Shown: positions 6,237 through 36,802 of the stretch, in pieces | How positions within the stretch are numbered: position 1 is the first letter of the stretch | How the letters are laid out: each line of letters opens with the position of its first letter | Virus genome (UHGV): UHGV-0360402 | Origin: a virus | DNA length: 41,827 nucleotides | Strand: one strand, 5' to 3' | Made by a program: the position numbers and the translations under genes | Notes under the pieces: model-generated | What the model saw: only the letters and a program-made list of their open reading frames with translations | Databases searched by the model: none | What the model was told of the DNA's origin: nothing

Positions 6237-6251
6237 TTACCTTTCAGGTGA
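6237..6251. promoter_or_regulatory. Operator-like site TTACCtttcaGGTGA
   Basis: Member of TTACC-N5-GGTAA family (one mismatch); 40 bp upstream of LexA box. Confidence 0.5.
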
Positions 6252-6290
6252 TTTGCAAAACGTGCTGGATAGCAAACAAATTATTTGCTA

Positions 6291-6306
6291 CTGTATAAAT
6301 ATACAG
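6291..6306 (+). promoter_or_regulatory. LexA (SOS) box CTGTATAAATATACAG
   Basis: CTGT-N8-ACAG with AT-rich centre, 18/20 to TACTGTATATATATACAGTA; 22 bp upstream of ATG 6328. Confidence 0.8.
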
Positions 6307-6327
6307 TTATTGCATGGAGAAGATAAG

Positions 6328-6585
6328 ATGCAGCAGTATCACTATCCACTGGAAGACGGATTTACCGAAAGGATTCACACGCCGGGAGGCGTCAGGTCAC
6401 TGGTGGAGGGATCGCACTTGATGAAATTACTCCGGGATCTCGATAAGGATGGATTTAATGTCGATGGCCCACTTGCCGAACTGACTGCACTGATTAACTA
6501 CGTCACCAGCTCACAGATGTCTATGCGGGATCTGCAAACACATCTCGACTATTGTGCCGAACAATTACGAAAACAAACCCGGTAA
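6328..6585 (+). CDS. Small SOS-controlled protein (85 aa), stand-alone copy of the C-terminal module shared by the two antirepressor genes; candidate antirepressor
   Basis: GGAGA RBS; LexA box in promoter; alignable to C-termini of 7736-8392 and 9256-10194 products (LM-LL-DG-AELT-RD-QTH). Confidence 0.7.
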   Translation: MQQYHYPLEDGFTERIHTPGGVRSLVEGSHLMKLLRDLDKDGFNVDGPLAELTALINYVTSSQMSMRDLQTHLDYCAEQLRKQTR

Positions 6586-6591
6586 ATTTAA

Positions 6592-6609
6592 AGGCCGCAA
6601 GAGCGGCCT
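6592..6609. terminator. Hairpin between convergent genes (aggccgc-aaga-gcggcct)
   Basis: GC stem directly after stop of 6328-6585; overlaps 3' end of minus-strand gene. Confidence 0.5.
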
Positions 6610-7336
6610 ATCGTTTCGCTTTGTGCTCATCCCAGCACGTTTTGCACCATGCCATTAAGCCGTCCGCATTTTGATTATTAGGGTAAAAGCTGGTTCGTTT
6701 TCTGCGGACATTACAAATTGGGCACCACTTCATATGGCGTGTATTCTTTGGGCCATCGAGACACCTTGCACACCATTTAGTCAATCCATCTGGATTTTTT
6801 GACGATTTCCTGAATTTTTCATATGGAAGGTTTATTCTGCATCGCAAGCACTGCTTGCTACCACTTGAAACTCTGTTAGCTGATTCTTCTTTTGGCGGCG
6901 ATACAGAAGGTATTCTTGCTGGCTCTGATATTGCCTGAGGTGCTTTTTTAGATGACTGAGACGATATGTCATCACCAGGGAATCTTCCATGATATGCCGG
7001 ACGCGTTGACACTCCAGGTGGAATCTCAGCTGTAAACGGCTTTGGCTGAATCAGTTGCCTCTCTTTTGCTAACTCCTGCTGTTTATAATATGTCTGGATT
7101 ACCGCACTATCATAAGCAGGAGGTGCGGAAATATTAGGCGCATTACCTCCAGTTTTTTGAAACTGAGTAGAGGTGTGTTCTATCACCTGTGTACGATTAA
7201 TCGTTATCTCCCCATCTTCGGTCTTTATCGTTTTGTTATGATTAACGACCGTACGATCAGAGATCTTAGTCTTGTTCTGGTTGATAACGTAAATAATCAC
7301 CGCAACCACACCAACAACTATCCAGAAAACTTCCAT
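6608..7336 (-). CDS. Membrane-anchored protein with two C-terminal CxxC...WCxxC zinc-ribbon repeats (242 aa)
   Basis: GAGGA RBS; N-terminal TM helix; tandem Cys motifs CLRC...WCARC and CPIC...WCKTC; operator at 7357-7371 just upstream. Confidence 0.65.
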   Translation of the reverse strand: MEVFWIVVGVVAVIIYVINQNKTKISDRTVVNHNKTIKTEDGEITINRTQVIEHTSTQFQKTGGNAPNISAPPAYDSAVIQTYYKQQELAKERQLIQPKPFTAEIPPGVSTRPAYHGRFPGDDISSQSSKKAPQAISEPARIPSVSPPKEESANRVSSGSKQCLRCRINLPYEKFRKSSKNPDGLTKWCARCLDGPKNTRHMKWCPICNVRRKRTSFYPNNQNADGLMAWCKTCWDEHKAKR

Positions 7337-7356
7337 TGCTTTTCCTCACAATAACA

Positions 7357-7371
7357 TTACCTTAAAGGTAA
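7357..7371. promoter_or_regulatory. Operator-like palindrome TTACCttaaaGGTAA
   Basis: Perfect half-sites; between divergent genes 6608-7336 and 7736-8392. Confidence 0.6.
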
Positions 7372-7449
7372 TATCTTGCTTTCAGGTGATCAAGCGTTAA
7401 ACGCAATCAACCAAATACGGTTGATTTTAATATTTCTTCGCGTTTATCA

Positions 7450-7464
7450 TTACCTTTGCGGTAA
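7450..7464. promoter_or_regulatory. Operator-like palindrome TTACCtttgcGGTAA
   Basis: Perfect half-sites; abuts candidate promoter TTACAT-18-TAGTAA at 7467-7496. Confidence 0.6.
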
Positions 7465-7497
7465 ATTTACATTGCACTCCTCTTGTGCCATAGTAAT

Positions 7498-7577
7498 CGG
7501 GCACTGGCAAAATCCAGTGCCGGGATTGGTCTCCCGGATTACTAAGTGGCGCATACCACGCCAGACGTGGTTTTTTT
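7498..7577 (+). ncRNA. Candidate small RNA or terminated leader upstream of antA-like gene
   Basis: Promoter-like elements 7467-7496; two stable hairpins (gcactgg/ccagtgc; cggga/tcccg) then terminator hairpin ccacg/cgtgg plus T7; the overlapping 110-aa ORF lacks an RBS. Confidence 0.4.
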
Positions 7578-7735
7578 ATGCGTATAGCACAGTCATGCCA
7601 GAATTATGGTGGGCTGAATGGGGGTCCGAAAGGACGCCGGTACCACTTAGGCCGGTAAGACCAACTCCGTTCAGTTCACCACCATCTGATTGGTCTCAGC
7701 GGTGGTGATGTAATTCGCTAAGTGGAGACGCCATC

Positions 7736-8392
7736 ATGAACGCTCAACTCATCCCCGTATTCAACGGCACTATATCTAACGAAACAGCCCTACTTTGTAA
7801 TGCCCGCGATCTGCACGCTTTTTTAGGTGTTAAAAAGGTGTTTGCAGCATGGATTACAAATCGCATATCAGAATACGAATTCATTGAAAATCAAGACTAT
7901 ATTTTGCTTTCCAATTTGGGAAAGCAAACATCTGGTAGAGGCGGCCACAACCGCAAAGAGTACCACCTCACCCTTGATACAGCCAAAGAGCTGGCGATGG
8001 TCGAGCGTAACGAAAAAGGTCGCCAGGTGCGACGCTACTTCATTGAATGCGAGAAACGTTTAAGACAACAAGAAACAAAAGTGGAGAAGGTCTTGTCAGG
8101 CTTCATGCCCGCCATTATGGAGGCGATCAAGCTGGAAGACAAAAAAGAATACAGCGCCCCACTGAAGCCCGGCTACCGTAGCCTGATTCATTCGCCGTCT
8201 GGTGTTCTCGGCCTGACGGAGAACTCACTGCTGATGAATTTGCTGAACCAGTTACAGGAAGACGGGCACGACGTATCGGGCGCGGCGGCGGAACTGACCA
8301 CCATGTTCTGCTACATCGTCGGTGTGAGCAAATGCCTGCGTGATATCCAGACCCACGCGGAGTACATCAACGACAAGGCAGGGTTCTTCTGA
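7736..8392 (+). CDS. Antirepressor-type protein: AntA-like N-terminal domain fused to shared C-terminal module (218 aa)
   Basis: GGAG RBS; N-terminus matches AntA-type pattern ([39 protein letters not shown]); C-terminal 78 aa near-identical to C-terminus of 9256-10194 product. Confidence 0.8.
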
Positions 8393-8416
8393 CAGAACGG
8401 CGGCACAGGGATGTGC
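8163..8416. repeat. Inverted repeat, left arm (pairs with 9232-9486)
   Basis: About 254 bp, roughly 96% identical to reverse complement of right arm; covers the 3' coding end of the antirepressor plus 25 bp past its stop. Confidence 0.85.
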
Positions 8417-8464
8417 CTTTAAATAATTCTGTACGATTGCAGACTGGGGGTGAATAGCGTACTA

Positions 8465-8479
8465 TTACCTTAAAGGTAA
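8465..8479. promoter_or_regulatory. Operator-like palindrome TTACCttaaaGGTAA
   Basis: Identical to site at 7357; overlaps -10 of candidate promoter TTGCAG-17-TACTAT (8437-8465). Confidence 0.6.
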
Positions 8480-8491
8480 AGGAGGCGCGAT

Positions 8492-8659
8492 ATGACAGCG
8501 TTGAAAAATCGTACTCAGCACAATGAACAAGCCAAGCAATGCTGGGATGTCATTGGAAAAGTTATGCTTGGCCGCGCAAGCAAAGAGCGCGACAAGGATA
8601 TGGTTTACCAGACAGGAACATCTTTCAGCGACTTCAAGGCGGCATTTCGCTCCAAATAG
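8492..8659 (+). CDS. Small hypothetical protein (55 aa), first gene of IR-flanked cassette
   Basis: AAGGAGG RBS; below ORF-track size cut-off; GC and codon use phage-like (CGN arginines). Confidence 0.55.
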   Translation: MTALKNRTQHNEQAKQCWDVIGKVMLGRASKERDKDMVYQTGTSFSDFKAAFRSK

Positions 8660-18426: not shown

Positions 18427-20897
18427 CAGAATCCCCCAACAGTAAGGCGAGGAATAACGGCAAGAACAGACAGCGGCAACGGGTCAAGCTGACGGATTCT
18501 TACACGTCCGTTTTTGCCCCAGTTACTGTCCAGTTTCACTTCTACTTTTCCGGTAGCATCATCAACAGGATCATCGTAGAACTCGAATTCACGCTGTGGA
18601 TATTCGTACCATTTACCGCCGGGCGTAGTCGCCCAGATGCCGCGGCTGGCATTCACAACCAGAGTAACGGATGGGATCACCTGTTTTTTGTCCAGCAGCG
18701 TTTCCTGTCCGTTAATGTTGATATCCAGTGTTTCGAATTCAGCAGTTATTGGCAGGCCGATGTGCACTACAGCCCCCGGTGATTCCAGCGTGACGGCACC
18801 TCCGGAAACTACTTTCTGTGGTTCCACGTTCGCATCAGAGAGGATGTTTACGGTCTGACCTTCAAGATGAGACAAGCCGCCAAATGCCCGGCGCGCCATC
18901 TGCCAGTTCGTGGTGGCCACATTCCTGAGGGATGGCGGGACGTTCCTGTTAGCACGAACCACTACAGCGGTGTTGCTGGTTACAGAAATAATGTCGCAAC
19001 GTAATTCTTTTGACACTTCATCGCCAGTATCAGGATCAGTTCCGGTATAAGGGAACTGTAGTTGCGCACCGACATCACTACTGGTGAAGTACGCACCACC
19101 AGAAATACTGATTGTATATTCCGCGCGGTAATCCCATTCGCCAGAACCACCAGTGATGGTCATCGTTCTGTCAGACGTATTTCTTCCATCATAGCTAAGG
19201 CCAGAATCAACAAAGAAAGCATCTTCATCGCTGGTAAATAAACGGCTGGACAGTCGCTCGATGTATCTCACTGTTTGCCCGTTAACGGTTCGGTTAACGA
19301 CGAAATACACTGCATCTTCATTTCCTTCGCTGATACTGCATGTGCTTTCATATTTTCCGGTACTGGATTGTGGTGCCCATGCAAAAACCTGCTGATCACG
19401 CAAATAGGTCATCACCAGTAATTTACCGTCATCACGAATGCAGAAGGCGCTGGAGTAAGGGACAATAGAGAAGCACCAGTCAACAATGCTGTGCTTCTGA
19501 AAAAGATGATTGGCAAGGATGGTCAGGTCGTTCCCCTGATAGCCGTCAACATCGAATGAGTAGGCCAGATCACGGACAACACTGCCTTTCTCCTGGACGA
19601 ACAGAGCAATATTCGCCACGGCAATTGGTGGGACATTGCTAGAGCCATTTGATCCCTGAGAGCTGAATGCAAATGATGATGGGGTTAACACTTTGTTCTG
19701 GTCGCCGGTGATGACGTACTCACCTCCAGAAGTCAGTGCCACCAGCGAACCGACATCAATCAGGTGGCGGATCTCATTAACCTGACGCCCGGCATAGGTG
19801 TAGATAATTCTGTCGTCATCCTGCGTAGGATTGCTTTTGCCAAAATCCTTATAATCCCCGGTACGGCTGGCCCAGATAGTCTGAGGGAACGCAGTCGATG
19901 CGGCGAAGTAAAGACGTTGTTGATAATAAACAACAGTGCCAGGATAACCATTAACACTGTTCCAGGCATATTTAGCCCATTTATAGCTGGCATTATCCTC
20001 GCCAACTACCTGCGAAGGGATATAGGAAATCACCTCGGCAGTTGCAGTAGTTCCATTTGCAGCAGTGATACGGGCAATGCCAAAACCACTGTGCAGATAT
20101 TCCCACTCAATGCCAGTATCATCATCACCGGATCCGCCCCAGCCATCCCATGATGTGCCTTCTGTATGCGAAGGGCGCAAAGTACCTGTTTTGCCTGCTG
20201 TAACGGCGCGATAGTAGTTACTGTCTGCACGGCGAATATCGCCAATCGACGTACTCTTACTGGTTTCCCATACCGGCACTGAATCCACTGCAGGCTGTTC
20301 CAGATAGAACAATTTGCCTACCTGCTCCGCGCCAAAAATAGAGGCGCTTGCCGTTAACGTAATTGTCCCGGTGCTGGCGCTGGCATAAACCGTCACTGAC
20401 TCGTCAATATTGATATCTTCAAATGGCCCGTTCTTCGTTACCACATCAACCAGTTGCCAGTTGTCATGAGCATATCGGCGCAACTCTTTCGGCGGGTATG
20501 CCGGGTGAACCAGCGTAAGCACGTCGGCGCTTTGCGTGAATTTAATTCGGAACAGATCGGCTTCAGTATATGGCGTGGCAATTTCATAAATAACATTGCT
20601 GCTGTTCAGCACCAACGCACCATCTTTGATAACGCGCATGTACTGGTGTCCGAACTCCAGAGCATAGGTCTGAACCGTCGAGAACTGGAACGGAATCAGG
20701 CGGCATTTCCGATTTGGGTATTTGGCGGCACCGACAAAACGCGTACCAGGTCGATTCTCAACGCCGCCATACTGCCGCACGATAAAGTTATCGCACTTGC
20801 GCAATGCCACCTGGTACTTCGCCATGTCGATACGACCGTACAACGACGGTCCAATCTCACCACCGGCAAAGCTGGGCTGGATCCAACTGATAGCCAT
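18426..20897 (-). CDS. Tail tube / nozzle protein (T7 gp12-like; 823 aa)
   Basis: Size and position after a gp11-sized gene; N-terminus MAISWIQPSFAGGEIGP resembles podovirus tail tubular B starts. Confidence 0.6.
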   Translation of the reverse strand: MAISWIQPSFAGGEIGPSLYGRIDMAKYQVALRKCDNFIVRQYGGVENRPGTRFVGAAKYPNRKCRLIPFQFSTVQTYALEFGHQYMRVIKDGALVLNSSNVIYEIATPYTEADLFRIKFTQSADVLTLVHPAYPPKELRRYAHDNWQLVDVVTKNGPFEDINIDESVTVYASASTGTITLTASASIFGAEQVGKLFYLEQPAVDSVPVWETSKSTSIGDIRRADSNYYRAVTAGKTGTLRPSHTEGTSWDGWGGSGDDDTGIEWEYLHSGFGIARITAANGTTATAEVISYIPSQVVGEDNASYKWAKYAWNSVNGYPGTVVYYQQRLYFAASTAFPQTIWASRTGDYKDFGKSNPTQDDDRIIYTYAGRQVNEIRHLIDVGSLVALTSGGEYVITGDQNKVLTPSSFAFSSQGSNGSSNVPPIAVANIALFVQEKGSVVRDLAYSFDVDGYQGNDLTILANHLFQKHSIVDWCFSIVPYSSAFCIRDDGKLLVMTYLRDQQVFAWAPQSSTGKYESTCSISEGNEDAVYFVVNRTVNGQTVRYIERLSSRLFTSDEDAFFVDSGLSYDGRNTSDRTMTITGGSGEWDYRAEYTISISGGAYFTSSDVGAQLQFPYTGTDPDTGDEVSKELRCDIISVTSNTAVVVRANRNVPPSLRNVATTNWQMARRAFGGLSHLEGQTVNILSDANVEPQKVVSGGAVTLESPGAVVHIGLPITAEFETLDININGQETLLDKKQVIPSVTLVVNASRGIWATTPGGKWYEYPQREFEFYDDPVDDATGKVEVKLDSNWGKNGRVRIRQLDPLPLSVLAVIPRLTVGGF

Positions 20898-26603: not shown

Positions 26604-26693
26604 ATCAATGACTCCGTACGCAATTAAATTATTACCAATTTAACCACATATGATTTATCTATCGTAGATAGTTGACATTTAACGCACGAATTA

Positions 26694-26708
26694 TTACCTT
26701 TCAGGTAA
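26694..26708. promoter_or_regulatory. Operator-like palindrome TTACCtttcaGGTAA
   Basis: Perfect half-sites; about 90 bp upstream of 26603 start. Confidence 0.6.
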
Positions 26709-27270: not shown

Positions 27271-27294
27271 GCCCGGTTCGCCGGGCATTTTTTT
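27271..27294 (+). terminator. Hairpin plus U-tract immediately upstream of moron RBS (attenuator-like)
   Basis: gcccgg-ttcg-ccgggc then ATTTTTTT, ending 1 nt before AAGGTGAG RBS. Confidence 0.6.
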
Positions 27295-27305
27295 AAGGTG
27301 AGATC

Positions 27306-27725
27306 ATGAAGACAATTGATATGTTGGCTAAGTATCTAAATGAATGGCCATTAAAATATTCTCGTATCGTTCAGGCTGAAGACTGCATTTTTTATGGCGT
27401 TCTTGCTGGTAATGAAATGCATTACGAAGTAATTCAGAGTGAGGGACTGGCTGGGTTAACTCTTAGCGAAGACCATGGTACTAGCGTTACGTTCCATGAC
27501 TGGATAACAGCACAACGTTCTGAAATGGAAAAAGGCGATGTTTTTGATATTTCTCGCGCTGTTTACGCTAAAGCAAAAAGTGATAATGATTACATGAGCG
27601 AACACTTATACAACATGAAGTTGCAATGCCTGCATGCGGCGCTTATTCAGAATGGGCACTTCGATAAAACAAGTGCCATCAATATTGCGGAAGCCATCAA
27701 CGCTGGATTTAATGCCATTAAGTAA
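27306..27725 (+). CDS. Hypothetical moron protein (139 aa), opposite strand to packaging genes
   Basis: AAGGTGAG RBS; own terminator downstream. Confidence 0.65.
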   Translation: MKTIDMLAKYLNEWPLKYSRIVQAEDCIFYGVLAGNEMHYEVIQSEGLAGLTLSEDHGTSVTFHDWITAQRSEMEKGDVFDISRAVYAKAKSDNDYMSEHLYNMKLQCLHAALIQNGHFDKTSAINIAEAINAGFNAIK

Positions 27726-27729
27726 CACC

Positions 27730-27741
27730 GTGACATGTCAC
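27730..27741. repeat. 12-bp palindrome GTGACATGTCAC (copy 2 of 3)
   Basis: Exact; preceded by TAACACC as at copy 3. Confidence 0.8.
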
Positions 27742-27745
27742 AAAC

Positions 27746-27772
27746 AGCCAGCCGATGAGCTGGCTTTGTTTT
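27746..27772 (+). terminator. Rho-independent terminator
   Basis: agccagc/gctggct stem plus TTTGTTTTA. Confidence 0.75.
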
Positions 27773-27815
27773 ATCCTCATCAGAGGATATCAACGACATT
27801 ATCCCCACCAGCAGA

Positions 27816-29291
27816 TTAAGCATATGGATCGTAATCTGTGATGGCCTTGCCTTGCTGGTTCTGCTGCCCGGGAATTCGCAGACGCTTCGACACAGGGAAC
27901 GCAAACGTCAGCAGTAGCGCATCGCCTTTACCAGGAGAACGCCCAAGCCGCTCCTTGATATCTTCCTTCGGTTCGATAACGATTTTACCGTCCACTCGAA
28001 CTTTGTACTCTGCCGCCGACAGGTCGTCCGCTGTTTCCTGGTCATCCAGCATGCCGCCCAGCCTCAGCCATGTCTTACATGAGTTGAACATCTCCCCGCG
28101 CTTGTTGAGCATCTGAGGGTCAGTTGACGCACCACCGAACGGAACAAGTTGCCATGTACGACCCCAGCCATCACCGATTGACTTCAGACCGGTTCCGTAA
28201 CCGAAGTCGATGAACACCGCGTCAGCATTGTACTGGTCTTCAAAGTCAGCGATACGCTTCGCCATAATCAGATCGTCGGTGGTCTTGTTACCAGTCCATA
28301 GCACCTTACTGTGCAGCCCCTGCCGCAGGTATATCACCGCGTCATCAACGCCTGAGTATGCCGGGTCAACGCCGATTATCACCGGAGCATGTGCAACCTG
28401 CGCAGCGGTGACCACCCGTTTCATTGCCTCGTCAGTAAGTCCGGTAGGGATAAACTGCAATTCAGATGCATCCGGGAATATGCCGCGCACACGGATTTTA
28501 ACGAAGTCGCTGTCTTCCCCGTAGTCATCAACCCATTTCTGCAACTGCTGTTTGTTAGTGCCTTCCACCGTCCGGCTGTCAATCTGCGCAGTTTTCCAGC
28601 GGTGTTTGTATTTGCGGAAACATTCGCGAAAACGCCCGGTATTACGTGTAGGGTTTCCGAACGCCACCCAGATAATCTCAGTGTCTTCGTCCGTAAGCGC
28701 ACCCTCAGCAACTTCCCACACCAGATCCGCAATGTTCGACGCTTCATCGAATACCACGATGATGCGTTTTCGCTCGTTGTGTAGTCCGGCGAATGCCTCA
28801 GTGTTGTGCTCAGACCAGGGGATTGCGTCAGCTCGCCACCGCTTGTCGTGCCCAGGATCATTGCTGTACATCGCGGTAGCGGTACAGGTAAACCAGTCTT
28901 TCGTGATAGCAAGGTTCGACCACTTGATAATTTCCGGCCAGGTCTTCGTTCGTAGCTGGTTGTCGGTGTTGGCGGTCACCACGACCTTACAATCCTCGCA
29001 AGTGGACATGCCCCAGTTGATCAACATTGAGATGTATGCTGATTTACCAATACCGTGACCCGAAGCACGTGCCAGCATAAGCGGCTGATAGCGCGTCTCG
29101 GGATTCTGCAGGTGATCACGTATCTCTCGGAACGCATCGGCCTGCCACTGACGTGGGCCGGTAGCATGTGCCAGTTCAGTCCCCTCTTCCCCCCACGGGA
29201 ACGCATAGAGGGCATAGCCAAGCGGATCGTGAGTGAACCCTGCAATATCCTCGATCAACTGCTCTTCAGGAGATAACGCTGCATCTGTCAC
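27816..29291 (-). CDS. Terminase large subunit (491 aa)
   Basis: GTG start coupled to terS stop; Walker-A-like GHGIGKS, acidic VVFDEAS and nuclease-region motifs. Confidence 0.85.
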   Translation of the reverse strand: MTDAALSPEEQLIEDIAGFTHDPLGYALYAFPWGEEGTELAHATGPRQWQADAFREIRDHLQNPETRYQPLMLARASGHGIGKSAYISMLINWGMSTCEDCKVVVTANTDNQLRTKTWPEIIKWSNLAITKDWFTCTATAMYSNDPGHDKRWRADAIPWSEHNTEAFAGLHNERKRIIVVFDEASNIADLVWEVAEGALTDEDTEIIWVAFGNPTRNTGRFRECFRKYKHRWKTAQIDSRTVEGTNKQQLQKWVDDYGEDSDFVKIRVRGIFPDASELQFIPTGLTDEAMKRVVTAAQVAHAPVIIGVDPAYSGVDDAVIYLRQGLHSKVLWTGNKTTDDLIMAKRIADFEDQYNADAVFIDFGYGTGLKSIGDGWGRTWQLVPFGGASTDPQMLNKRGEMFNSCKTWLRLGGMLDDQETADDLSAAEYKVRVDGKIVIEPKEDIKERLGRSPGKGDALLLTFAFPVSKRLRIPGQQNQQGKAITDYDPYA

Positions 29292-29893
29292 TGATTGCCA
29301 TCCTGACGTTCTTTGAGTCGCTTCCTGGCTGCTGCTATGCGATCAGCAATTGTCACATTCACATTAACATCCAGGCGTTCTTTGAATGCGTTGACGTCGA
29401 CGTGCTTACCAATCAGTTCGAGGTTCTTCACCTTGTCAGGCCATTTAATTTTTTTGAGGATTGTCTCTATCGAATCCTCGTTCATGTTCATGATGGTCGA
29501 TGACAGATCAAAGCCACTAAGCGTAGTGCGCCAGATTTTCGGCCACTCGCGGATTGGCTTAAGGCTCCCATCGTCGTTGAGGATATCGATCACGTCCATC
29601 TGGTCGATCTCCACCAGGCGCATGAGAACGTAATCAGCACTGACGCGCATTCGTTTGTTGCGCTCCTCCATCAACTCGGCAATCCGTTTTTGAATGCGTT
29701 CATCGCGCATCATGACACTGGCTTTAACTGCCGCTGTATTTGGGGAGAATCCTGCGTTAATCGCTGCCTGAGTCTGGTTTTCAGGCGTTTTGATGTATGA
29801 CTGGCAATAAGCCTCCTGCATTGCTGTGAGCGGCTTAAATTGCGTTGATTTGCGTTTATAGGTTTTAGGTTCAGCAGGCATCATAACCACCAT
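29288..29893 (-). CDS. Terminase small subunit
   Basis: Immediately upstream of and coupled to terL; start taken at ATG 29893 (alternatives 29884/29881); the ORF-track TTG 29962 start would put an operator inside the coding sequence. Confidence 0.65.
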   Translation of the reverse strand: MVVMMPAEPKTYKRKSTQFKPLTAMQEAYCQSYIKTPENQTQAAINAGFSPNTAAVKASVMMRDERIQKRIAELMEERNKRMRVSADYVLMRLVEIDQMDVIDILNDDGSLKPIREWPKIWRTTLSGFDLSSTIMNMNEDSIETILKKIKWPDKVKNLELIGKHVDVNAFKERLDVNVNVTIADRIAAARKRLKERQDGNQ

Positions 29894-29901
29894 GGTAATA
29901 G

Positions 29902-29916
29902 TTACCGTTGTGGTAA
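29902..29916. promoter_or_regulatory. Operator-like palindrome TTACCgttgtGGTAA upstream of terS
   Basis: Perfect half-sites, flanked by direct GGTAATAG repeats. Confidence 0.55.
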
Positions 29917-29958
29917 TAGTACCATGCAAAATAAAGCCGCCATAGTTGGCGGCAGTAT

Positions 29959-30171
29959 TCAAAGTCCATCAAATTCATCGTAAAAACTCTCGTCAAGATA
30001 CCCTTCCCATTTACCGCGAATGAAAATTACATCCTCGCCGCAAGGGTGCTGACTGTCGATAACTATATCCCTCCTGGCGCAACCATACTTATGCATGAGA
30101 AATTTAACCTCTTTCGGAAAATTTGCTGAGTTATCTCTCATATCTTCAAGGTCGTAGCGTATTTTTGGCAT
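29959..30171 (-). CDS. Hypothetical protein (70 aa)
   Basis: ATG 30171 with AAGGTG RBS; directly downstream of palindrome copy 3. Confidence 0.5.
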   Translation of the reverse strand: MPKIRYDLEDMRDNSANFPKEVKFLMHKYGCARRDIVIDSQHPCGEDVIFIRGKWEGYLDESFYDEFDGL

Positions 30172-30180
30172 AACACCTTC

Positions 30181-30192
30181 GTGACATGTCAC
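30181..30192. repeat. 12-bp palindrome GTGACATGTCAC (copy 3 of 3)
   Basis: Exact; overlaps stop of 30189-30527 gene; preceded by TAACACC. Confidence 0.8.
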
Positions 30193-30527
30193 ACTATTAA
30201 TTTCGTTTCATGCCAGCCTTTAGTCACCCAGCATTGCGAGTCACCATTACACGGGCATGAATTTACAGGAACTCTCTCGCCGCACTTACCGCAACGTTTT
30301 CTGCTGATCGATTTTATACGCCCGTGCACGCGTGCATCATCCTGGCGGATCAGTAACGCTATATACTCACCAAATTCGTAAGGCGCACGCCCGGGGCGAC
30401 GCGTGGCACAGTTACGCTCCAGCATTTCAATTTCCTGAGCATCAAGCACAATCTCCAGCTTACGCACACCAGATGCAGCTTGTCTGGCTCTCTGAGCGGC
30501 TTTGCGCTCTGCTGCTGATTTAGCCAT
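30189..30527 (-). CDS. Hypothetical protein with C-terminal Cys cluster (112 aa)
   Basis: AGGA RBS; basic N-terminus; CGKCG...CPCNGDSQC motif; last gene before the late block. Confidence 0.5.
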
Positions 30528-30861
30528 TCTGATTTTCCTGCATCATGAGAAATACAATCATGGCGGCGCGGAGAGGTCTGGTATCAAATATTGGTCTTAC
30601 GCCTTTTGCATCAACACACCATTCAGTTAACTGGTCTAAGATAGAAATCCTGTGTTTCTCAATAATCGGCCATGAGGCGCTAGGATCATTGCAGTAGTCA
30701 GGTAAAGGGTTTAATGGCTCAAAAGTTGTATCAGTATTTCCGTAATACCATTTGTTGGTGTTATTCCCTGATGTTTCCGGTTTACATGCCCAAAGGCCTT
30801 TAAAAATTATGTCTCCTACCATTCTGTTAATTTCAAAATCACTTAACTGTGAATAGTCCAT
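30520..30861 (-). CDS. Hypothetical nin-region protein (113 aa)
   Basis: AGGAGG RBS before ATG 30861. Confidence 0.5.
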
Positions 30862-31667
30862 CACTTCACCTCCTGCGGCGGTTCCGGTAGCGGCATCCAG
30901 TGAGTTACTTTCGATGCCGGTTCTTCCCCATCGTCAGTAACTGCCCACCATTTGTTTCTCGACCAATCGTAATACCCTTCGAAGGTATTGCACTCAGTCC
31001 AGCCGTAAGACTTACCCCAACACCAAACATACTGTTTATCGTTCGGCATTCGCTCACTACAGCTTATCCAACCATCCGGAGTCACCGGAAGCGAGAACGG
31101 CAGCACATCTCTGTGAACAAGTTTTTGCTGTGACAGGTTATCCAGAACTTTCTGTACTGCTGCATCACCGAATACACCAAGCGCATCTGCCATAACTCCT
31201 ACAACCTGATAAGCCTCAGCGCATACCGTGGATAAACCATCCGGAATTACCGGAGAGTTGCCGGGTTCTTTAATGTGCAAGCGAGGCTCACCATCTTTTG
31301 GTTCAGGCCACTGGCGCTCCATGTTGATCTTCAATTTATCTTCCATAGCAGCGGTAATTTCAGCATCGCTGATGCCAGCACGGCGCTGTGCATCCCACAA
31401 CAGGAAATGCATATCAGCCCACTCGCTGAGATCGTCTGGTTCGGCTGCGGCTTCCAGAGCCTCTTTTGAGAGGTGTTTCAGTGGACCAATGGGGCCAACG
31501 CAGCCAAATGTGGAGTCAGACCATTTGGCATGCTCGTGGCGAATCAGTTCGCGTTCCAGTGATGCCAGTGCAATTCGTGCCAGTTCCATTTGTTCGCCAC
31601 GAGTAAGCCCGTTTTCAAGCGGATTTTTAATGAACAATTCAATACGTTCTTTGGTAATAGTGGTCAT
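30861..31667 (-). CDS. DUF550/DUF551-type two-domain phage protein (268 aa)
   Basis: N-terminal helical region and C-terminal W-rich domain ending HWMPLPEPP, typical of the lambdoid DUF550-DUF551 fusion. Confidence 0.6.
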
Positions 31668-31677
31668 TTGTTATGCC

Positions 31678-31875
31678 TCAATACACGAAATCTGTTTTAA
31701 ATTCATGGTTACATTCTGGACAGCATGTTTCGTAACCTTTTATTTCTTCACATGCCTGTTTAGCTCCAGAAAACTCCCAGAAATCAGCATCACAAAGCAG
31801 ATCGAAATTGTGACCGCATTTTGGGCATTCGGTATCAAGTGACAGATTCCAGTAAGCAGTGGTGTTTTTATCCAT
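31678..31875 (-). CDS. Small zinc-ribbon protein (65 aa)
   Basis: AAGGAG RBS before ATG 31875; CPKC...CPEC. Confidence 0.5.
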   Translation of the reverse strand: MDKNTTAYWNLSLDTECPKCGHNFDLLCDADFWEFSGAKQACEEIKGYETCCPECNHEFKTDFVY

Positions 31876-31876
31876 A

Positions 31877-32320
31877 TCACTCTCCTTTGATGCGAATGCC
31901 TGTTGCAATGCTGTTTATGATGCTGTCAGTGCATGGGGTAGAAAGCTGGGCATCTCCAGCAATTTTCATGACCTCAACATCTGCATATCGAATACCGAGG
32001 TGTATCAGACCGGCTATGCCTGACTTAAGCCGAGCATTTTCCATAAATAGAACTTTTGCCCGCTGTTTTTCTGCTTCAAGCTCAACGCGCAGCTTCCCTA
32101 CCGTTAGCGCAATTTCCTCGTTCTCCTGGTCGCGGGATTTGATGTATTGCTGGTTTCTTTCCCGTTCATCCAACAATACCAGCGCGATATCTGGCGAAAA
32201 GTGCTTCATAAAATCGTTAAGCGCATTAATTCGCTGATCGAAAGGCATTACAGGTGCTTCACCAGCAATTTTTGTTTTTTCAGCGATTTCACGAAGCTTT
32301 TGATAATCAATCTTGCTCAC
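31877..32320 (-). CDS. Hypothetical protein, possibly Ead/Ea22-like (147 aa)
   Basis: GTG start with AAGGAGG RBS; coiled-coil centre. Confidence 0.5.
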   Translation of the reverse strand: MSKIDYQKLREIAEKTKIAGEAPVMPFDQRINALNDFMKHFSPDIALVLLDERERNQQYIKSRDQENEEIALTVGKLRVELEAEKQRAKVLFMENARLKSGIAGLIHLGIRYADVEVMKIAGDAQLSTPCTDSIINSIATGIRIKGE

Positions 32321-32621
32321 TGGTTGCCTCCTTTGCTGGGCTTTCTATCTTCTGAGTGGTTGTATCAAACTCAAACAACTTAACCACGTCATCAAACAGG
32401 ACATAATCGCCATCAGAATCTTCTGTCATGTCAGCGCCACAATCCTGACCGCACGAGTCACAACCACCCATATCAAGCTCGTATCGCTTGAGGTTTGCGA
32501 TATTTGATAAATTCAGCGCCAGTACAGCCAGGTCATAAACCTCTTCGGCAGTGACATCGCTGTTCAGTCCCATTTCATGGCGATATATGATTTTTTCTAC
32601 TCGTTGTTTTGTGATTGTCAT
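32307..32621 (-). CDS. Hypothetical acidic protein (104 aa)
   Basis: ATGA-coupled to upstream gene. Confidence 0.45.
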   Translation of the reverse strand: MTITKQRVEKIIYRHEMGLNSDVTAEEVYDLAVLALNLSNIANLKRYELDMGGCDSCGQDCGADMTEDSDGDYVLFDDVVKLFEFDTTTQKIESPAKEATSEQD

Positions 32622-33235
32622 TTTTGCTCGCCTCCCTGTTCTTCCAGAAAAATGCGCATAGTCTCAAGCATCTCTTCGGTGTCATACGGTGACAACTTGT
32701 CACGCAGGATGTGTTCAATGCTGTTAATGAACTTTCGGATTGCTTTGCGTTCAATTTCAGTCAGGAAAGCATCGGTGGCTGGGGTTTCCGGCAATAATCC
32801 GCCAACCAGTTCTATTTCTGTTCTGAACCGGGAACTAGACACAACGCGATAAGTCAGGTTCGGCATTCTGGCTGCCACTTGCATCTCAAACTCCTCTCCA
32901 GATTCCAGCCCGGCTTCATGGGCGTAATCAAGCGGGCTTCTGACAGGCTCTGAAGCTTCGCCGCCCCAGTAAATCAGGTTCGACTTCAGCCCCGCATTCT
33001 CCGCTGCCAGCGTCGAAAACTTCTCGTGTGCCAACTTAACAGCTGCATCAGCCTGCTTAATTGACTCAATCGCTCTCTGGTGGTCTTCGGCCAGCTCATT
33101 AGCACGCACCAACTGAACTTCCAGTTGCGCTGCCAAACAGCGAACAAGCACGGATGGTGCGCCTGTCATGTCGTCAGCTAACGCATGCCCTGATGCCACT
33201 AAATCTTTGATCATACCTTCAGCCATACTTTCCAT
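32618..33235 (-). CDS. Hypothetical protein (205 aa)
   Basis: ATG 33235; coiled-coil segments. Confidence 0.5.
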   Translation of the reverse strand: MESMAEGMIKDLVASGHALADDMTGAPSVLVRCLAAQLEVQLVRANELAEDHQRAIESIKQADAAVKLAHEKFSTLAAENAGLKSNLIYWGGEASEPVRSPLDYAHEAGLESGEEFEMQVAARMPNLTYRVVSSSRFRTEIELVGGLLPETPATDAFLTEIERKAIRKFINSIEHILRDKLSPYDTEEMLETMRIFLEEQGGEQK

Positions 33236-33296
33236 CTTTACCCTCGCTTATCCACATAACTTATTGATTACATTGATAACTAAAAAGATCGTCGAT

Positions 33297-33641
33297 TCAG
33301 AACTCTTCGATGTTCCAGCCACCACCTGCTTTCTTTGGTTTAACCGTTACCCCGATGATTCGGAACGGATACTGATCTGCGGCGACTTTGGTTTTCACCC
33401 TGGCGTCGTCGGTCCAGAAACCTTTCACTTCGTGCAGTTCCATCTCGCCGGTGGCGAGCATCACAGCAAAATCGGGCGTATAGAACGTGTTGTCAGCTAA
33501 CCGCAACTTGATACCCTCAAATCGATACCAGACGATTCCCCCTGCACGTTTACGCTGCTCAAGGTGCTGGCAATACGCAGATTCTGTTTTGTTCATCTGG
33601 CCTGTTTTGAGTCGACCAAGAGCCTGTATCTGTTTTCTCAT
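33297..33641 (-). CDS. DUF1064-like phage protein (114 aa)
   Basis: GAGGT RBS overlapping operator at 33645; motifs YCQHLE...FYTPDF...HEVKG. Confidence 0.55.
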   Translation of the reverse strand: MRKQIQALGRLKTGQMNKTESAYCQHLEQRKRAGGIVWYRFEGIKLRLADNTFYTPDFAVMLATGEMELHEVKGFWTDDARVKTKVAADQYPFRIIGVTVKPKKAGGGWNIEEF

Positions 33642-33644
33642 GAT

Positions 33645-33659
33645 TTACCTCTAAGGTAA
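33645..33659. promoter_or_regulatory. Operator-like palindrome TTACCtctaaGGTAA
   Basis: Perfect half-sites; overlaps RBS of 33297-33641. Confidence 0.55.
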
Positions 33660-33706
33660 TTAAAAACCACATAAGACACGAAATCAATAGAGTTTAGAAT
33701 ATTTTG

Positions 33707-33721
33707 TTACCCAACAGGTAA
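33707..33721. promoter_or_regulatory. Operator-like palindrome TTACCcaacaGGTAA
   Basis: Perfect half-sites; just downstream of terminator after P-like gene. Confidence 0.55.
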
Positions 33722-33733
33722 TTGTAGAGACGT

Positions 33734-33753
33734 AAAAAAATGCGCTATCGCGC
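33734..33753 (-). terminator. Rho-independent terminator after P-like gene
   Basis: gcgc-gata-gcgc stem plus ATTTTTTT on minus strand, 6 nt after stop. Confidence 0.65.
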
Positions 33754-33758
33754 TGGTA

Positions 33759-34559
33759 TTACTTGATAAATCCTGCCGCCTTTCCCCGCCTGTATTCCTC
33801 CATCAGCCACTGCGCCGGTGTTATTCCCCCAAGGGTGGCGGCGTTAGGCATGCACCCGAAACTTCTCCCTGGTGGATGGTAAACGTCTCTCCCTGTGCCC
33901 GGAGGTGTACTCATGGGCTCTGGCTTTGCCTGTATGCTGATCACCGGATCGGGTATCTGCTGTCCGGAAGCCACCTTTTTCGCCCAATCATCGAGCAGCC
34001 TGCGCGCGTGTTTCTCAACCTCAATCTCGCTAAGCTGGCGCTGATACATTGCACGGCGGGTATCACATACGACCCAGTACATAACCGGATGTCGCCACGG
34101 GAATCTTTCGGGACCACCAGGATATAAACTTTTTTCCTTGCTGTACCGGTGAAACTCCGCCATCACATCATCAATGGTGACGCCAAGAACCATCTTGCTG
34201 TCTTTACACCACTTGATGAATTGCCCTGGCGACGGCCAGAACGGAGACTCACTGGCGCGGGCGTGGCGCATACCAGCAGAAACCTGTTCACGGGTTCGGA
34301 TCCCCCCTTCGGCAAACGCAGCAATCCACTGCTGTTTTGCAGCAACTTCCTGCTCTGGCGTCTTCAGGTTGGTTACCACTGCCGCCGGAAACAGTTGTTT
34401 CAGCTGTTTGAAAAGGGCATCAACAAGCCTCTCTGCTGACATGTTCACCACGTTGTCATTGTTGGTGTACTGATGCTCATAACCTGACATGCGAGAAAGG
34501 GCTTCTCCGTCACGGTTTTGTATCGCGGTAAAAACGTTGTTCACAAGAAATCCTCCCAT
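33759..34559 (-). CDS. Replication protein P-like helicase loader (266 aa)
   Basis: QWIAAFAEGGIRTREQVSAGMRHARASESPFWPSPGQFIKWCKD aligns with lambda P core QWVLAFRENGITTMEQVNAGMRVARRQNRPFLPSPGQFVAWCRE; start could be later. Confidence 0.8.
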   Translation of the reverse strand: MGGFLVNNVFTAIQNRDGEALSRMSGYEHQYTNNDNVVNMSAERLVDALFKQLKQLFPAAVVTNLKTPEQEVAAKQQWIAAFAEGGIRTREQVSAGMRHARASESPFWPSPGQFIKWCKDSKMVLGVTIDDVMAEFHRYSKEKSLYPGGPERFPWRHPVMYWVVCDTRRAMYQRQLSEIEVEKHARRLLDDWAKKVASGQQIPDPVISIQAKPEPMSTPPGTGRDVYHPPGRSFGCMPNAATLGGITPAQWLMEEYRRGKAAGFIK

Positions 34560-35332
34560 GCTTCAGGGCTGTTCCAGTGCGGAACGTTGTTATCAGGTAA
34601 TGTTGATTGCTTCTGTCTGCTAATCTGCAGCCGCCTTGCCAGCTTCTGCTCCCACTGTGCCTGATGGTATGCCTTACCCTCAGCCATCCAGTAAATTCTG
34701 AACTCTGCAAGTTCCTGTGCCGTTGGCAGACTGTCCAGGTAGATCCCCTGCAATGAGCTTTTCCGAAGAAAGTCATCTGATGGCTGCCATTGTTCATGCA
34801 TGACAAATTTGCCTAATTGCCCTGGCCCACCAGGAGGAACAAAGTTATTCATCACGGCGTTGTTTGCGCCGGGGTCATGATGCACAGAATCCCCGGTTTT
34901 TGTCCTGCTCTCCCTCTCTTGGTTAAATGACTGGTTATATGACTGGTTCTGGATCCCGTTTTTGGGATCATTCAACATCCCGTTTTTGGGTATATTCCAG
35001 TTTTCGGGAACATTACCGTTTTCGGGTTCATTACACCCTTCTAGGTTGCCTTTAATGTTCCCTTTTTTGGTTATATTAAGAGAGAAAACCCGCACTCTTT
35101 TCGTCGCTCCCTTTCTCTCTCCGGTATCTGAAATAAGCCCCATTTTCATGAGCGATATAAGCCCGGCCTGTACGGTTTTTTTATTCAGGCAAGTGTCTTT
35201 AACGAGGCGTTCTATGCTTGGGTAGCAGAGGTTATATTCATCGGCTCTGTCAGCCATCGAGAGCAGTATGAGCTTTAATGACGAGCTACCTGGATCTGTC
35301 TCCCAGGCCCAATCTGTTGCATGTCTGCTCAT
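34541..35332 (-). CDS. Replication initiation protein: N-terminal HTH, C-terminal DnaT-like domain (263 aa)
   Basis: GGAGA RBS; central Asn/Gly-rich linker; C-terminal DSLPTAQELAEFRIYWMAEGKAYHQAQWEQKLARRLQ matches DnaT-type domain; upstream of P-like gene. Confidence 0.7.
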   Translation of the reverse strand: MSRHATDWAWETDPGSSSLKLILLSMADRADEYNLCYPSIERLVKDTCLNKKTVQAGLISLMKMGLISDTGERKGATKRVRVFSLNITKKGNIKGNLEGCNEPENGNVPENWNIPKNGMLNDPKNGIQNQSYNQSFNQERESRTKTGDSVHHDPGANNAVMNNFVPPGGPGQLGKFVMHEQWQPSDDFLRKSSLQGIYLDSLPTAQELAEFRIYWMAEGKAYHQAQWEQKLARRLQISRQKQSTLPDNNVPHWNSPEAWEDFL

Positions 35333-35347
35333 GATTAATCTCCGCTA

Positions 35348-35548
35348 TCAGCTTGAATGTTGTGGGGAGGAATTAATCATGATCTGCTTAATCTCTGCCC
35401 TGATGCGACGGTTTGATTCCATGGTGCACTCAACACAGTGTCCGTTGTAAACCCAGCGTTCACTGTCATGTCCGTGCTTACATGGTTTTCCGGTGTAGTA
35501 GCGTTTAAGTCCGCGCTTTGCGGCATCAATACGTGTAATGATTTCCAT
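35348..35548 (-). CDS. Small Cys/His-rich hypothetical protein (about 66 aa)
   Basis: ATG 35548 (longer TTG version unlikely); CKHGH...HCVEC; downstream of operator 35629. Confidence 0.45.
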   Translation of the reverse strand: MEIITRIDAAKRGLKRYYTGKPCKHGHDSERWVYNGHCVECTMESNRRIRAEIKQIMINSSPQHSS

Positions 35549-35628
35549 GGTAAGCCCTGTTATTAGTATTGGGATTACGGTTATTTTGTGCTGACACAAA
35601 AAAAAGATCAACCAGATTTGGTTTTTTA

Positions 35629-35643
35629 TTACCTTTTAGGTGC
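35629..35643. promoter_or_regulatory. Operator-like site TTACCttttaGGTGC
   Basis: Two mismatches in right half; lies after the terminator that follows the cro-like gene. Confidence 0.45.
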
Positions 35644-35650
35644 GAATAGA

Positions 35651-35677
35651 TATGAAAAGACCGCCGGATGGCGGTCT
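35651..35677 (-). terminator. Terminator-like hairpin after cro-like gene
   Basis: agaccgcc-ggat-ggcggtct stem then T-rich run on minus strand. Confidence 0.5.
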
Positions 35678-35698
35678 ACAGAGGGTTGTGGCTGGATA

Positions 35699-35929
35699 TC
35701 ATGAGTAGAAGAAGTATGCCAGTTCTGCTTTTGAGCGCAGCCATTGTCTTGTTTTACAGGCTTTAAAAAGCCCATTCATCAATACCTTACCTGGCATTTT
35801 GCGCTTACCTGTTAAGTGAGTCTGGATATAGTGACTCGTCGTTCCGGCTTCCTGTGCGAAGGCTTCACGCTCATCCGGAGTAAGTGCAAGCCAGTGCTTT
35901 TTGAAATCGAAATGTCCGTTATCGCTCAT
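35699..35929 (-). CDS. Cro-like small HTH regulator (76 aa)
   Basis: Divergent from repressor gene across triple-operator region; first gene of leftward early operon. Confidence 0.6.
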   Translation of the reverse strand: MSDNGHFDFKKHWLALTPDEREAFAQEAGTTSHYIQTHLTGKRKMPGKVLMNGLFKACKTRQWLRSKAELAYFFYS

Positions 35930-35965
35930 AGCTATTGCCTGATATTTATTTCAGATAATAAATAT

Positions 35966-36028
35966 TCACCCATAAGGTAACAAAAATCAAGGATAGTTAC
36001 CTATGGGGTGCATTTACCTGTTGGGTAA
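35966..36028. promoter_or_regulatory. Tripartite operator region between cro-like and repressor genes
   Basis: Three sites: TCACCcataaGGTAA (35966-35980), TTACCtatggGGTGC (35997-36011), TTACCtgttgGGTAA (36014-36028); overlap a candidate leftward promoter. Confidence 0.65.
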
Positions 36029-36083
36029 TATTGCTTTAAATTGAATCATCTACTGATTCATATATGAGGCGATTTTCCAGAAA

Positions 36084-36668
36084 ATGAAAAGTATCCAGGA
36101 CGTCCGCAGGCAAAATCTCAACGACTTGATCGACCGTGAATTCAATGGTGTTCAGACGCGGATGGCAGAAAAACTTGGAACTCAGGCAAATCTGGTAAAC
36201 CGCTGGGCTCTTGGCAAGAAGGTTATCGGCGACCAGGTTGCGCGAAAAATTGAAGCTGCCGCCAATAAACCCCGTAACTGGCTTGATATCGATCGCTCGC
36301 TTTCTCAGGAAGGTTTTCAGCCTGTCGGCCCAAGCGACATTGGTCAGCTGGCAGCTCACAACCTGGAACGCTGGATGAGTGAAAGCCGCGACCTTTCAAC
36401 TCAGGGAAAACTTCACCGCGCATCCGGCGTCGCCCAGGTGACAATAAGCCGCCTGTTAAACAATGAGGTCAGCGTTTCCATTTCCACCCTGGAGAATGTT
36501 GCATCTGCATTCGGGCGTCACGGATATGAACTACTGATTCATCCACATGACCCTGCAACTATCAACTATGACCGCTCGCGCTACGCATTGTTACCTGAAA
36601 CAGAGAAGGCAAAGATCGAAAGTTACATTGAATTTGTCATCAACCAGAACGAAAAAAACAAACAATAA
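36084..36668 (+). CDS. Prophage repressor candidate (194 aa), HTH, no S24 peptidase domain
   Basis: N-terminal HTH (GVQTRMAEKLGTQANLVNRWALGKK) and second HTH-like segment; no Ser/Lys autocleavage motifs; divergent from cro-like gene; own terminator. Confidence 0.65.
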   Translation: MKSIQDVRRQNLNDLIDREFNGVQTRMAEKLGTQANLVNRWALGKKVIGDQVARKIEAAANKPRNWLDIDRSLSQEGFQPVGPSDIGQLAAHNLERWMSESRDLSTQGKLHRASGVAQVTISRLLNNEVSVSISTLENVASAFGRHGYELLIHPHDPATINYDRSRYALLPETEKAKIESYIEFVINQNEKNKQ

Positions 36669-36688
36669 AATCATATTTTTCAGTAAGT

Positions 36689-36713
36689 AAGCCGCCTTAT
36701 GGCGGCTTTTTTA
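36689..36713 (+). terminator. Rho-independent terminator after repressor gene
   Basis: aagccgcc-ttat-ggcggctt plus T6. Confidence 0.85.
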
Positions 36714-36725
36714 TTGCCTGTTCGA

Positions 36726-36740
36726 TTACCTAACGGGTAA
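36726..36740. promoter_or_regulatory. Operator-like palindrome TTACCtaacgGGTAA
   Basis: Perfect half-sites; upstream of -35 of rightward early promoter. Confidence 0.6.
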
Positions 36741-36759
36741 TTTTTTTAACTCATATCTA

Positions 36760-36788
36760 TTGACATCAAACCAGATACGCATAATTAT
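36760..36788 (+). promoter_or_regulatory. Candidate rightward early promoter TTGACA-17-AATTAT
   Basis: Consensus -35; -10 overlaps operator at 36788. Confidence 0.55.
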
Positions 36789-36802
36789 TACCTCAACGGT
36801 AA
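36788..36802. promoter_or_regulatory. Operator-like palindrome TTACCtcaacGGTAA
   Basis: Perfect half-sites; overlaps -10 and start region. Confidence 0.6.

Follow-up and report, generated by a model that had tools for sequence, protein, structure and literature searches.

Which protein reads a 15-bp palindrome that recurs between the genes of a virus, from its immunity region to its late and accessory genes? We addressed this question in virus genome UHGV-0360402, a stretch of 41,827 nucleotides (called the window below), which represents a phiV10-like podophage of the genus Uetakevirus (ε15 family), circularly permuted and with its late genes on the minus strand. The initial annotation of this DNA had listed the palindrome, TTACC-N5-GGTAA, at 14 sites and attributed it to one regulator acting throughout the genome, the product of 36084-36668. 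We conclude that the palindromes are very probably the operators of this product, the Rep prophage repressor of the ε15/SPC32H type, which would silence the transcription units of the phage separately.

Copy number and location of the palindrome

An exact scan of the whole window returned 10 perfect copies of TTACC-N5-GGTAA, compared to 0.01 expected from dinucleotide-preserving shuffles, and their coordinates matched those given for ten perfect sites in the initial annotation. When one mismatch was allowed, the count rose to 13 sites (0.83 expected from shuffles), and sites 6237, 35966, and 29884 were added to the perfect ones. Sites 35629 and 35997 have two mismatches each, which brings the total to 15 sites in the window (10 perfect and 5 degenerate). 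The four degenerate sites reported before were all recovered, two with one mismatch (6237 and 35966) and two with two (35629 and 35997), and the one-mismatch site at 29884 had been overlooked. A 21-bp weight matrix, trained solely on four other genomes and symmetrised in its flank and centre bases (an orientation signal was sought no further), scored 11 of the window sites at 19.4-25.2 bits and site 35966 at 15.2 bits, compared to shuffle maxima of 4.7-16.3 bits. The scores of 29884 (11.2 bits), 35629 (10.0 bits), and 35997 (6.5 bits) fall within the range of the shuffle maxima, and support for these three sites therefore comes from their conserved positions in relatives and not from the score. 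The motif grows to 17 bp, A-TTACC-N5-GGTAA-T, in which an inverted repeat of 5+5 bp (extended, 6+6 bp) surrounds an A/T-rich centre. The loop bases vary freely, whereas the arms do not.

All 15 sites are outside coding sequence, which bears out the intergenic bias for which a whole-window scan had been proposed. In the gene model, built from phiV10 homology and open reading frames (ORFs), 8.05% of the window is non-coding, and the chance of this placement for the 12 strong sites alone is ~7e-14. The non-coding placement of all 15 depends on moving the terS start from TTG 29962 to ATG 29884. The phiV10-style TTG start would carry the ORF through a terminator hairpin (29953-29936) and both terS operators, whereas a shorter terS beginning at ATG 29884 (or 29881) fits the starts annotated in ε15 and Tyrion. 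From this arrangement, the terS start of phiV10 is probably mis-annotated (29884-29962 in the window; 41-110 in compared sequence L001).

Conservation across Uetakevirus genomes

Seven Uetakevirus genomes were compared (the window, phiV10, ε15, Tyrion, SPC32H, BUCT711, and BUCT554), the hosts of which belong to four genera (Escherichia, Salmonella, Enterobacter, and Klebsiella). In an unbiased count of every 5-N(0-9)-5 palindrome, TTACC-N5-GGTAA came first in each genome; it had 8-11 copies per genome and was enriched 200-300-fold. In alignments, the palindromes form conserved islands within otherwise diverged spacers, and their distances to genes are fixed: p06 is 91-92 bp away (7 of 7 genomes), the ATG of the DUF1064/RuvC gene 4-6 bp, int 43 bp, and p27 106 bp. 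Across the genomes, terS is preceded by two sites 18-20 bp apart that touch its start, ant by one site 75-86 bp before it; one site follows the cro terminator, and two or three separate rep and cro. Pairs recur at PL (62-63 bp apart) and at DUF1064/RuvC (62 bp apart) across genomes, and of the 27 distances between neighbouring sites, 11 are 62 bp. A scan of IMG/VR with the Rep alignment gave solely loci with a 100% identical Rep (n = 80), which carry no covariation information; the OR site and the PL pair are at the same coordinates in nearly all of these loci, and a second 62-bp pair is present in most.

The motif is already annotated in one relative. The ε15 records (AY150271.2 / NC_004775.2) contain seven "protein_bind, repressor, lysogeny" features with the sequence ATTACC-N5-GGTAAT, located before terS (12-27), before gp3 (2931-2947), between gp19 (ant) and the tail fibre gene (19895-19911), between gp37 and the repressor gene (three features), and past the replication genes (one feature). 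The syntenic sites in the window are 29902, 26694, 6237, 36726/36788, and 33707. Thus, recognition of the dispersed motif as a repressor site is a rediscovery. Literature searches on the motif text and on Uetakevirus operators returned nothing specific, and the ZX5 paper predicts four promoters and no operators.

Rep as the probable reader of the palindrome

Rep (36084-36668, plus strand) is a 194-amino-acid prophage repressor with an N-terminal helix-turn-helix (HTH) domain, a middle Xre-type HTH_3 domain (Pfam, residues 106-147), and a C-terminal oligomerisation/Ant-binding part. It is 100% identical to phiV10 p40 and ZX5 ORF21, and it matches the crystallised SPC32H Rep (PDB 5D50_A) over residues 1-190 (E = 4e-42), which marks it as a full-length homologue. 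Overexpression of the identical ZX5 protein abolished free phage and reduced holin and endolysin mRNA by >99.9% (PMC9782041). SPC32H Rep is described in a later paper as a tetramer that binds palindromic sites (PMC9638917, citing Kim 2016). Together with the "repressor" features of ε15 and the genus-wide conservation of site positions, homology to this characterised repressor supports the proposal that one regulator, the 36084-36668 product, acts genome-wide.

The link between protein and motif is consistent with two further comparisons. Rep of the window is 42-100% identical to the Rep proteins of ε15 (42%), SPC32H, and phiV10, and its N-terminal helix NLVNRW is invariant in 6 lineages despite identity down to 42%, matching the invariance of the half-site. 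In the Pseudomonas phage PseuP_224, cI is distantly homologous to the Rep N-terminal domain and has a different recognition helix, and three copies of TTACC-N4-GGTAA flank its gene in a 3.2-kb locus (L089; 1422, 1461, and 2323), with the same half-site and a spacing one base shorter. A Moraxella phage homologue of the same domain has degenerate TTACC-like palindromes upstream of its gene. By sequence comparison, these two loci tie the half-site to the HTH family of Rep, and we infer that the N-terminal HTH domains of Rep bind the two TTACC half-sites.

Operators in the immunity region

The initial annotation had described a cluster resembling the operator region OR between the Cro-like and repressor genes, and all three sites are there, as are two or three in relatives. 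The gene for the Cro-like small HTH protein (35699-35929, minus strand; 100% identical to phiV10 p41; PHROG 35, transcriptional repressor) is divergent from rep. The perfect OR operator (36014-36028) overlaps a -10-like hexamer, TAATAT (36026-36031), on the rep side. A weak site with two mismatches (35997-36011) is 17 bp from it, and the equivalent position is occupied by a perfect site in ε15, SPC32H, and BUCT711. The third operator (35966-35980; one mismatch, TCACC) is in the spacer of the promoter from which cro is read leftward (TTGATT 35990-35985, 17 bp, GAATAT 35967-35962), where TTGATT is invariant and TTGATTTTT is invariant in 6 genomes.

Two sites were correctly said to flank a TTGACA promoter. 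This promoter is PL (36760-36788, plus strand; TTGACA, 17 bp, AATTAT), at which CTATTGAC is invariant across genomes and the sixth base is A or T. The distal PL operator (36726-36740) is just past the rep terminator (36689-36708) and 20 bp upstream of the -35 hexamer. The proximal operator (36788-36802), 62 bp from the distal one, covers the start site, and its first T is the last T of the -10 hexamer. On the other side of cro, a degenerate operator with two mismatches (35629-35643) lies past the cro terminator (35677-35658) and upstream of the p42/DnaT/P replication operon; phiV10, Tyrion, and BUCT711 have one-mismatch copies at the equivalent place.

Operators at late, lysis, integration, and accessory units

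The remaining sites are at the starts of transcription units and beside promoter-like elements; such starts had been claimed for them, those of terS (29902) and of the gene ahead of the portal gene (26694) included. The DUF1064 ("nin-like") promoter (TTGATT 33687-33682, 17 bp, TTTAAT 33664-33659) has an operator pair 62 bp apart: a distal operator (33707-33721), an exact match in syntenic position, and a proximal operator (33645-33659) that ends 4 bp before the ATG and whose right half supplies the GAGG ribosome-binding site. The terS operator (29902-29916) is directly past the terminator at 29953-29936 and abuts an extended -10 element, TGgTACTAT (29924-29916, minus strand), conserved as TGnTAyTAT. 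The second, degenerate terS site (29884-29898; one mismatch) is 18 bp downstream of 29902 and touches the terS ATG. The portal/head operon begins with p06 (ε15 gp3), whose operator (26694-26708) is 91 bp upstream of the gene. In the divergent region between the tail fibre and ant genes, the operator (6237-6251; one mismatch) is ~15 bp upstream of the inferred ant -35 hexamer, and the equivalent site in phiv142-3 is perfect.

Three further window operators appear tied to accessory genes. Operator 7357-7371 is 21 bp upstream of gene 6608-7336 (minus strand), whose product belongs to PHROG 6762 and has a zinc-finger/endonuclease VII-like C-terminus. Operator 7450-7464 abuts a rightward promoter (TTTACA 7466, 17 bp, CATAGT to 7494) that leads to the gene for an AntA/Ant fusion (7736-8392); its counterparts are at 20497 in phiV10 and 21393 in Tyrion. 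Operator 8465-8479, before accessory gene 8492-8659, abuts TACTAT (8460-8465; TTGCAG 8437, 17 bp) and is followed by AGGAGG and the ATG. Phage phiv142-3 has sites 7450 and 8465 in common with the window and contains neither gene 6608-7336 nor operator 7357. This pattern suggests that operators travel with accessory genes, a new detail of this study. An intrinsic terminator (7555-7571) was found ~60 nt past the promoter-like site at 7466, well before the AntA gene, and phiV10 has a terminator annotated at the equivalent place; transcription of 7466-7571 could yield either an attenuated leader or a small RNA.

Relatives carry a full lysis operator 106 bp before p27, the first lysis gene. The matrix scan found no full lysis-promoter operator in the window, where all that is left is the right half-site, together with a second conserved element (see below). 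The lysis promoter region (3393-3480) keeps the TGTATGATG block and the GGTAAT half-site and has lost the left operator half; this reduction can be related to the lysis genes, which here directly follow a different tail fibre gene. The lysis boundary coincides with this different tail fibre gene and with the absence of the O-antigen modification gene. At int, every relative has a one-mismatch site, TTACC-N5-GGTAT, 43 bp before the gene and inside a highly conserved block (L001 26870, L003 26882, L004 28568, L005 26960, L006 12620, and L007 19769). Because the window ends at the int start codon, an int operator would fall just past its right end.

Proposed mode of repression

One base is common to operator and -10 hexamer at PL, the DUF1064 promoter, terS, and 8465, where the operator also extends over the start site, and at cro the operator is within the -35/-10 spacer; Rep bound at these places should exclude RNA polymerase. 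We therefore propose that Rep on its operators would occlude promoters, in the manner of classical operator action. The 62-bp pairs at PL and the DUF1064 promoter span about six helical turns, so that both sites of a pair could be held by one Rep tetramer along a single face of the DNA. There are terminators after rep, after cro, and after the early-right operon, and units that each end in a terminator and start at a promoter of their own imply that Rep would silence them separately. The units silenced in this way would be cro, PL, replication, nin-like, terS, head, tail fibre/ant, and accessory, and in relatives also lysis and int.

Several observations weigh against this interpretation. At p06, tail fibre/ant, and (in relatives) lysis, the inferred start sites are ~58-70 bp downstream of the operators, a distance at which simple occlusion would fail, and repression at these three promoters probably needs a partner at the core promoter, either the second element or a half-site. 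The promoters themselves are consensus matches to conserved hexamers, of which only PL and a few weak candidates pass the threshold of the scanner. The ε15 repressor features may themselves be computational predictions. Finally, the HTH segment of the Cro-like protein (AGTTSHYIQ.HLT) is invariant across the genus too, so that conservation fails to separate Rep from the Cro-like protein.

This last point bears on one alternative, in which the Cro-like protein or another phage regulator such as p55 (30189-30527) is the main reader of the palindromes, and these serve lytic shut-off or activation instead of prophage silencing. Besides the invariance that the Cro-like HTH shares with the motif, it can draw on the lambdoid phages, in which Cro and CI use shared operators, and on p55 being a conserved "transcriptional regulator" just before the late genes. 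By contrast, the ε15 annotators gave the sites to the repressor, the Rep-like domain of PseuP_224 is flanked by the same half-sites, and sites before int, ant, and accessory genes are expected targets of a prophage repressor. We consider this alternative improbable; moreover, use of the OR sites by Cro as well would not contradict their assignment to Rep.

A second alternative is that sites outside the immunity region act like the stoperators of mycobacteriophage L5, blocking elongation inside units. L5 (repressor gp71) resembles the window in having many repressor sites beyond its immunity region, structural genes included, and the comparison with L5 made in the initial annotation holds for this dispersed distribution. 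It does not extend to symmetry, orientation, or position of the sites. L5 stoperators are asymmetric 13-mers that act in one orientation, aligned with transcription; each is the target of a monomer and stops elongation from a short gap within an operon (PMC9283540), whereas the window sites are palindromes, which carry no orientation, placed on promoters, often just past terminators, and not within operons. The SPC32H homologue of Rep is described as a dimer/tetramer in PMC9638917, in contrast to the monomeric L5 repressor, which has an HTH and a "stoperator" domain. The terS pair, between a terminator and the start codon, could also stop early-right read-through, and the p06, lysis, and tail fibre operators are well upstream of the inferred core promoters. 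Nevertheless, no site was found between co-transcribed genes: each is at the start of a unit and next to promoter-like elements, themselves conserved across genomes; and the lysis genes of the window directly follow the tail fibre gene, yet a full operator is absent there. A stoperator function is thus very unlikely.

A motif without a phage-encoded reader, whether as a site for a host transcription factor, as an RNA hairpin, or as a repeat produced by chance or recombination, is scarcely credible: although RNA could form a 5-bp stem with a 5-nt loop from it and a recombination boundary at the lysis promoter falls on a half-site, the 200-300-fold enrichment holds in 7 genomes from four host genera, the loop bases vary around fixed arms, the LexA box is separate, and mismatched arms (TCACC in the lysis site, GGTAT in the int site) are conserved without compensatory change, which led us to reject the hairpin. 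LexA itself was also considered as reader of the palindrome and rejected, since the sole strong LexA box is a separate element at 6289-6308.

A second conserved element at fixed distances from operators

A 14-bp element resembling AACCATATATGGTT, with the core CATATrTGGTT, accompanies the operators and is not annotated in the ε15 record. Copies in the window are at 3446-3459, 6197-6210, 7409-7422, 26642-26655, and 35610-35623, and a perfect copy is at 26452-26465 of L004. Matches with up to three mismatches numbered 7, 9, and 6, compared to 1.3-1.7 expected. All 22 matches with up to two mismatches in the seven genomes are 19.5, 40.5-43.5, or 52.5 bp from a Rep site, although for 3 of the 22 this Rep site has at least two mismatches and is beyond the one-mismatch scan. 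The distances, roughly in step with the helical turn, are mostly ~42 bp; they are 52.5 bp at p06, where the element belongs to an invariant block of ~29 bp, ATATGTGGTTAAATTGGTAATAATTTAAT, and 19.5 bp at PL and the nin-like promoter, as measured from the proximal operator. Many copies are inside the core promoter. The exact word TATGTGGTT was tried as a candidate and set aside: its three copies are all beside operators, but its one-mismatch matches are not enriched (13 versus 9.6 expected), and it was recast as the 14-bp element.

We tentatively raise the possibility, which we hold to be less than even, that each promoter in the genus is a composite of a Rep palindrome and a second element, with a Rep tetramer bridging the operator to the element or to the operator 62 bp away. 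The second element could be a weak Rep site, as judged by the resemblance of its ACC-N6-GGT to the ACC-N5-GGT of the operators; alternatively, it belongs to Cro or the p55 regulator. If true, composite control would let one protein silence early, late, lysis, and integration units directly and without a cascade, even where strong operators are near -60 to -70.

Antirepressors and prophage induction

No S24 (LexA-like) autocleavage domain was found in Rep, whose Pfam matches are HTH families only, and this absence points to induction by an antirepressor. A small antirepressor of Rep, Ant (85 amino acids; 6328-6585, plus strand), matches PDB 5D50_E, "Anti-repressor protein" (E = 1.4e-46). Its inferred promoter (TGGATA 6266-6271, 17 bp, TACTGT 6289-6294) is overlapped at the -10 hexamer by a near-consensus LexA box, TACTGTATAAATATACAGTT (6289-6308), the core of which (CTGT-N8-ACAG, 6291-6306) is 22 bp before the ant ATG and kept in 7 of 7 genomes. 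A predicted LexA box in this position implies SOS induction via the antirepressor and not via repressor cleavage. In the mechanism we propose, modelled on SPC32H, DNA damage would remove LexA from the ant promoter via LexA cleavage, Ant would be made and would take Rep off the DNA, and all units would open together.

Two larger proteins, one with an AntA head and the other with a P22_AR_N head, end in a domain 43% identical to small Ant (E ~1e-16), so that the phage has three Ant-domain proteins. The AntA/Ant fusion is encoded at 7736-8392 (plus strand) and the P22_AR_N protein at 9256-10194 (minus strand). The P22_AR_N gene diverges from an Arc-like gene (10525-10986, plus strand) in an arrangement like P22 immI, with a TTGACA promoter (10498-10470) and no Rep operator.

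Neighbouring genes

Two other loci differ from the relatives or stand apart from the operators. The single RecE-RecT fusion p37 of phiV10 matches two overlapping ORFs of the window (37273-38094 and 38064-39032), either because a frameshift distinguishes the two genomes or because recE and recT are separate genes, as they are in ε15. Two plus-strand accessory genes, 84-602 and 618-1157, are located between the int side and the lysis cassette and encode a glycine-zipper/TraT-like lipoprotein and a DUF5384 protein. The matrix scan of the window found no Rep operator near them, and they may therefore be expressed in the lysogen.

Comparison with other repressor systems

By every feature tested (Rep, operator positions, and Ant with its LexA box), the sequence of the window is that of a member of the ε15/SPC32H Rep system. 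ε15, with gp38 as its repressor, has the same architecture and the same 17-bp palindrome at terS, gp3/p06, ant/tail fibre, PL, and the post-replication promoter; it differs in having three PL sites compared to two. The ε15 record leaves the OR, lysis, int, and second post-replication sites unmarked, although our scan finds them, and the window goes beyond ε15 in the operators before accessory genes (7357, 7450, and 8465). SPC32H shares homologues of Rep and Ant and the LexA box on the ant promoter and has 10 perfect palindromes, whereas the window adds the two Ant-domain fusions with AntA and P22_AR_N heads. The SPC32H Rep-Ant switch was reportedly worked out by Kim and Ryu in 2013 and by Kim et al. 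in 2016. Structures of the switch are available (PDB 5D50/5D4Z), and we follow it as related in PMC9638917 and PMC9986798.

Lambda likewise has divergent repressor and cro genes with two or three operators between them and a PL with operators, and its half-sites share the ACC/GGT core. In contrast to lambda, Rep is without an S24 domain, and each unit of the window has a terminator and its own operators in place of an N/Q antitermination cascade. Lambda OR and OL are two regions, whereas operators occupy eight regions in the window and about nine or more among the relatives. In function, the closest analogue is C1 of phage P1, a plasmid prophage, whose dispersed operators each have an operon of their own, as in the window; the resemblance is one of function only. 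P1 C1 acts at 22 dispersed operators, one repressor over many operons, and antirepressors counteract it; its operator consensus is an asymmetric 17-mer, ATTGCTCTAATAAATTT, from which the palindromic motif of the window differs (PMC8546580). No kinship of Rep with C1 appeared in PDB, where only SPC32H Rep matched, or in Pfam, which gave an Xre-type HTH; C1 itself was not compared directly.

Implications

New in this study are the operators of accessory genes, site 29884, and the second conserved element at fixed distances from operators; the rest is of a known kind. Operator and recognition helix stay the same even between Rep proteins with an identity of only 42%. This constancy suggests that what sets immunity groups of the genus apart may be Ant-Rep pairing rather than operator specificity. 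The operator map covers a common E. coli O157-associated prophage family and serves its annotation (the phiV10 records are without such features), the prediction of accessory genes that are silent in lysogens, and the construction of Rep-controlled expression parts. As read from these genomes, a phiV10-type prophage would be silenced at every unit by one non-cleavable, antirepressor-controlled repressor and not by a lambda-style cascade.

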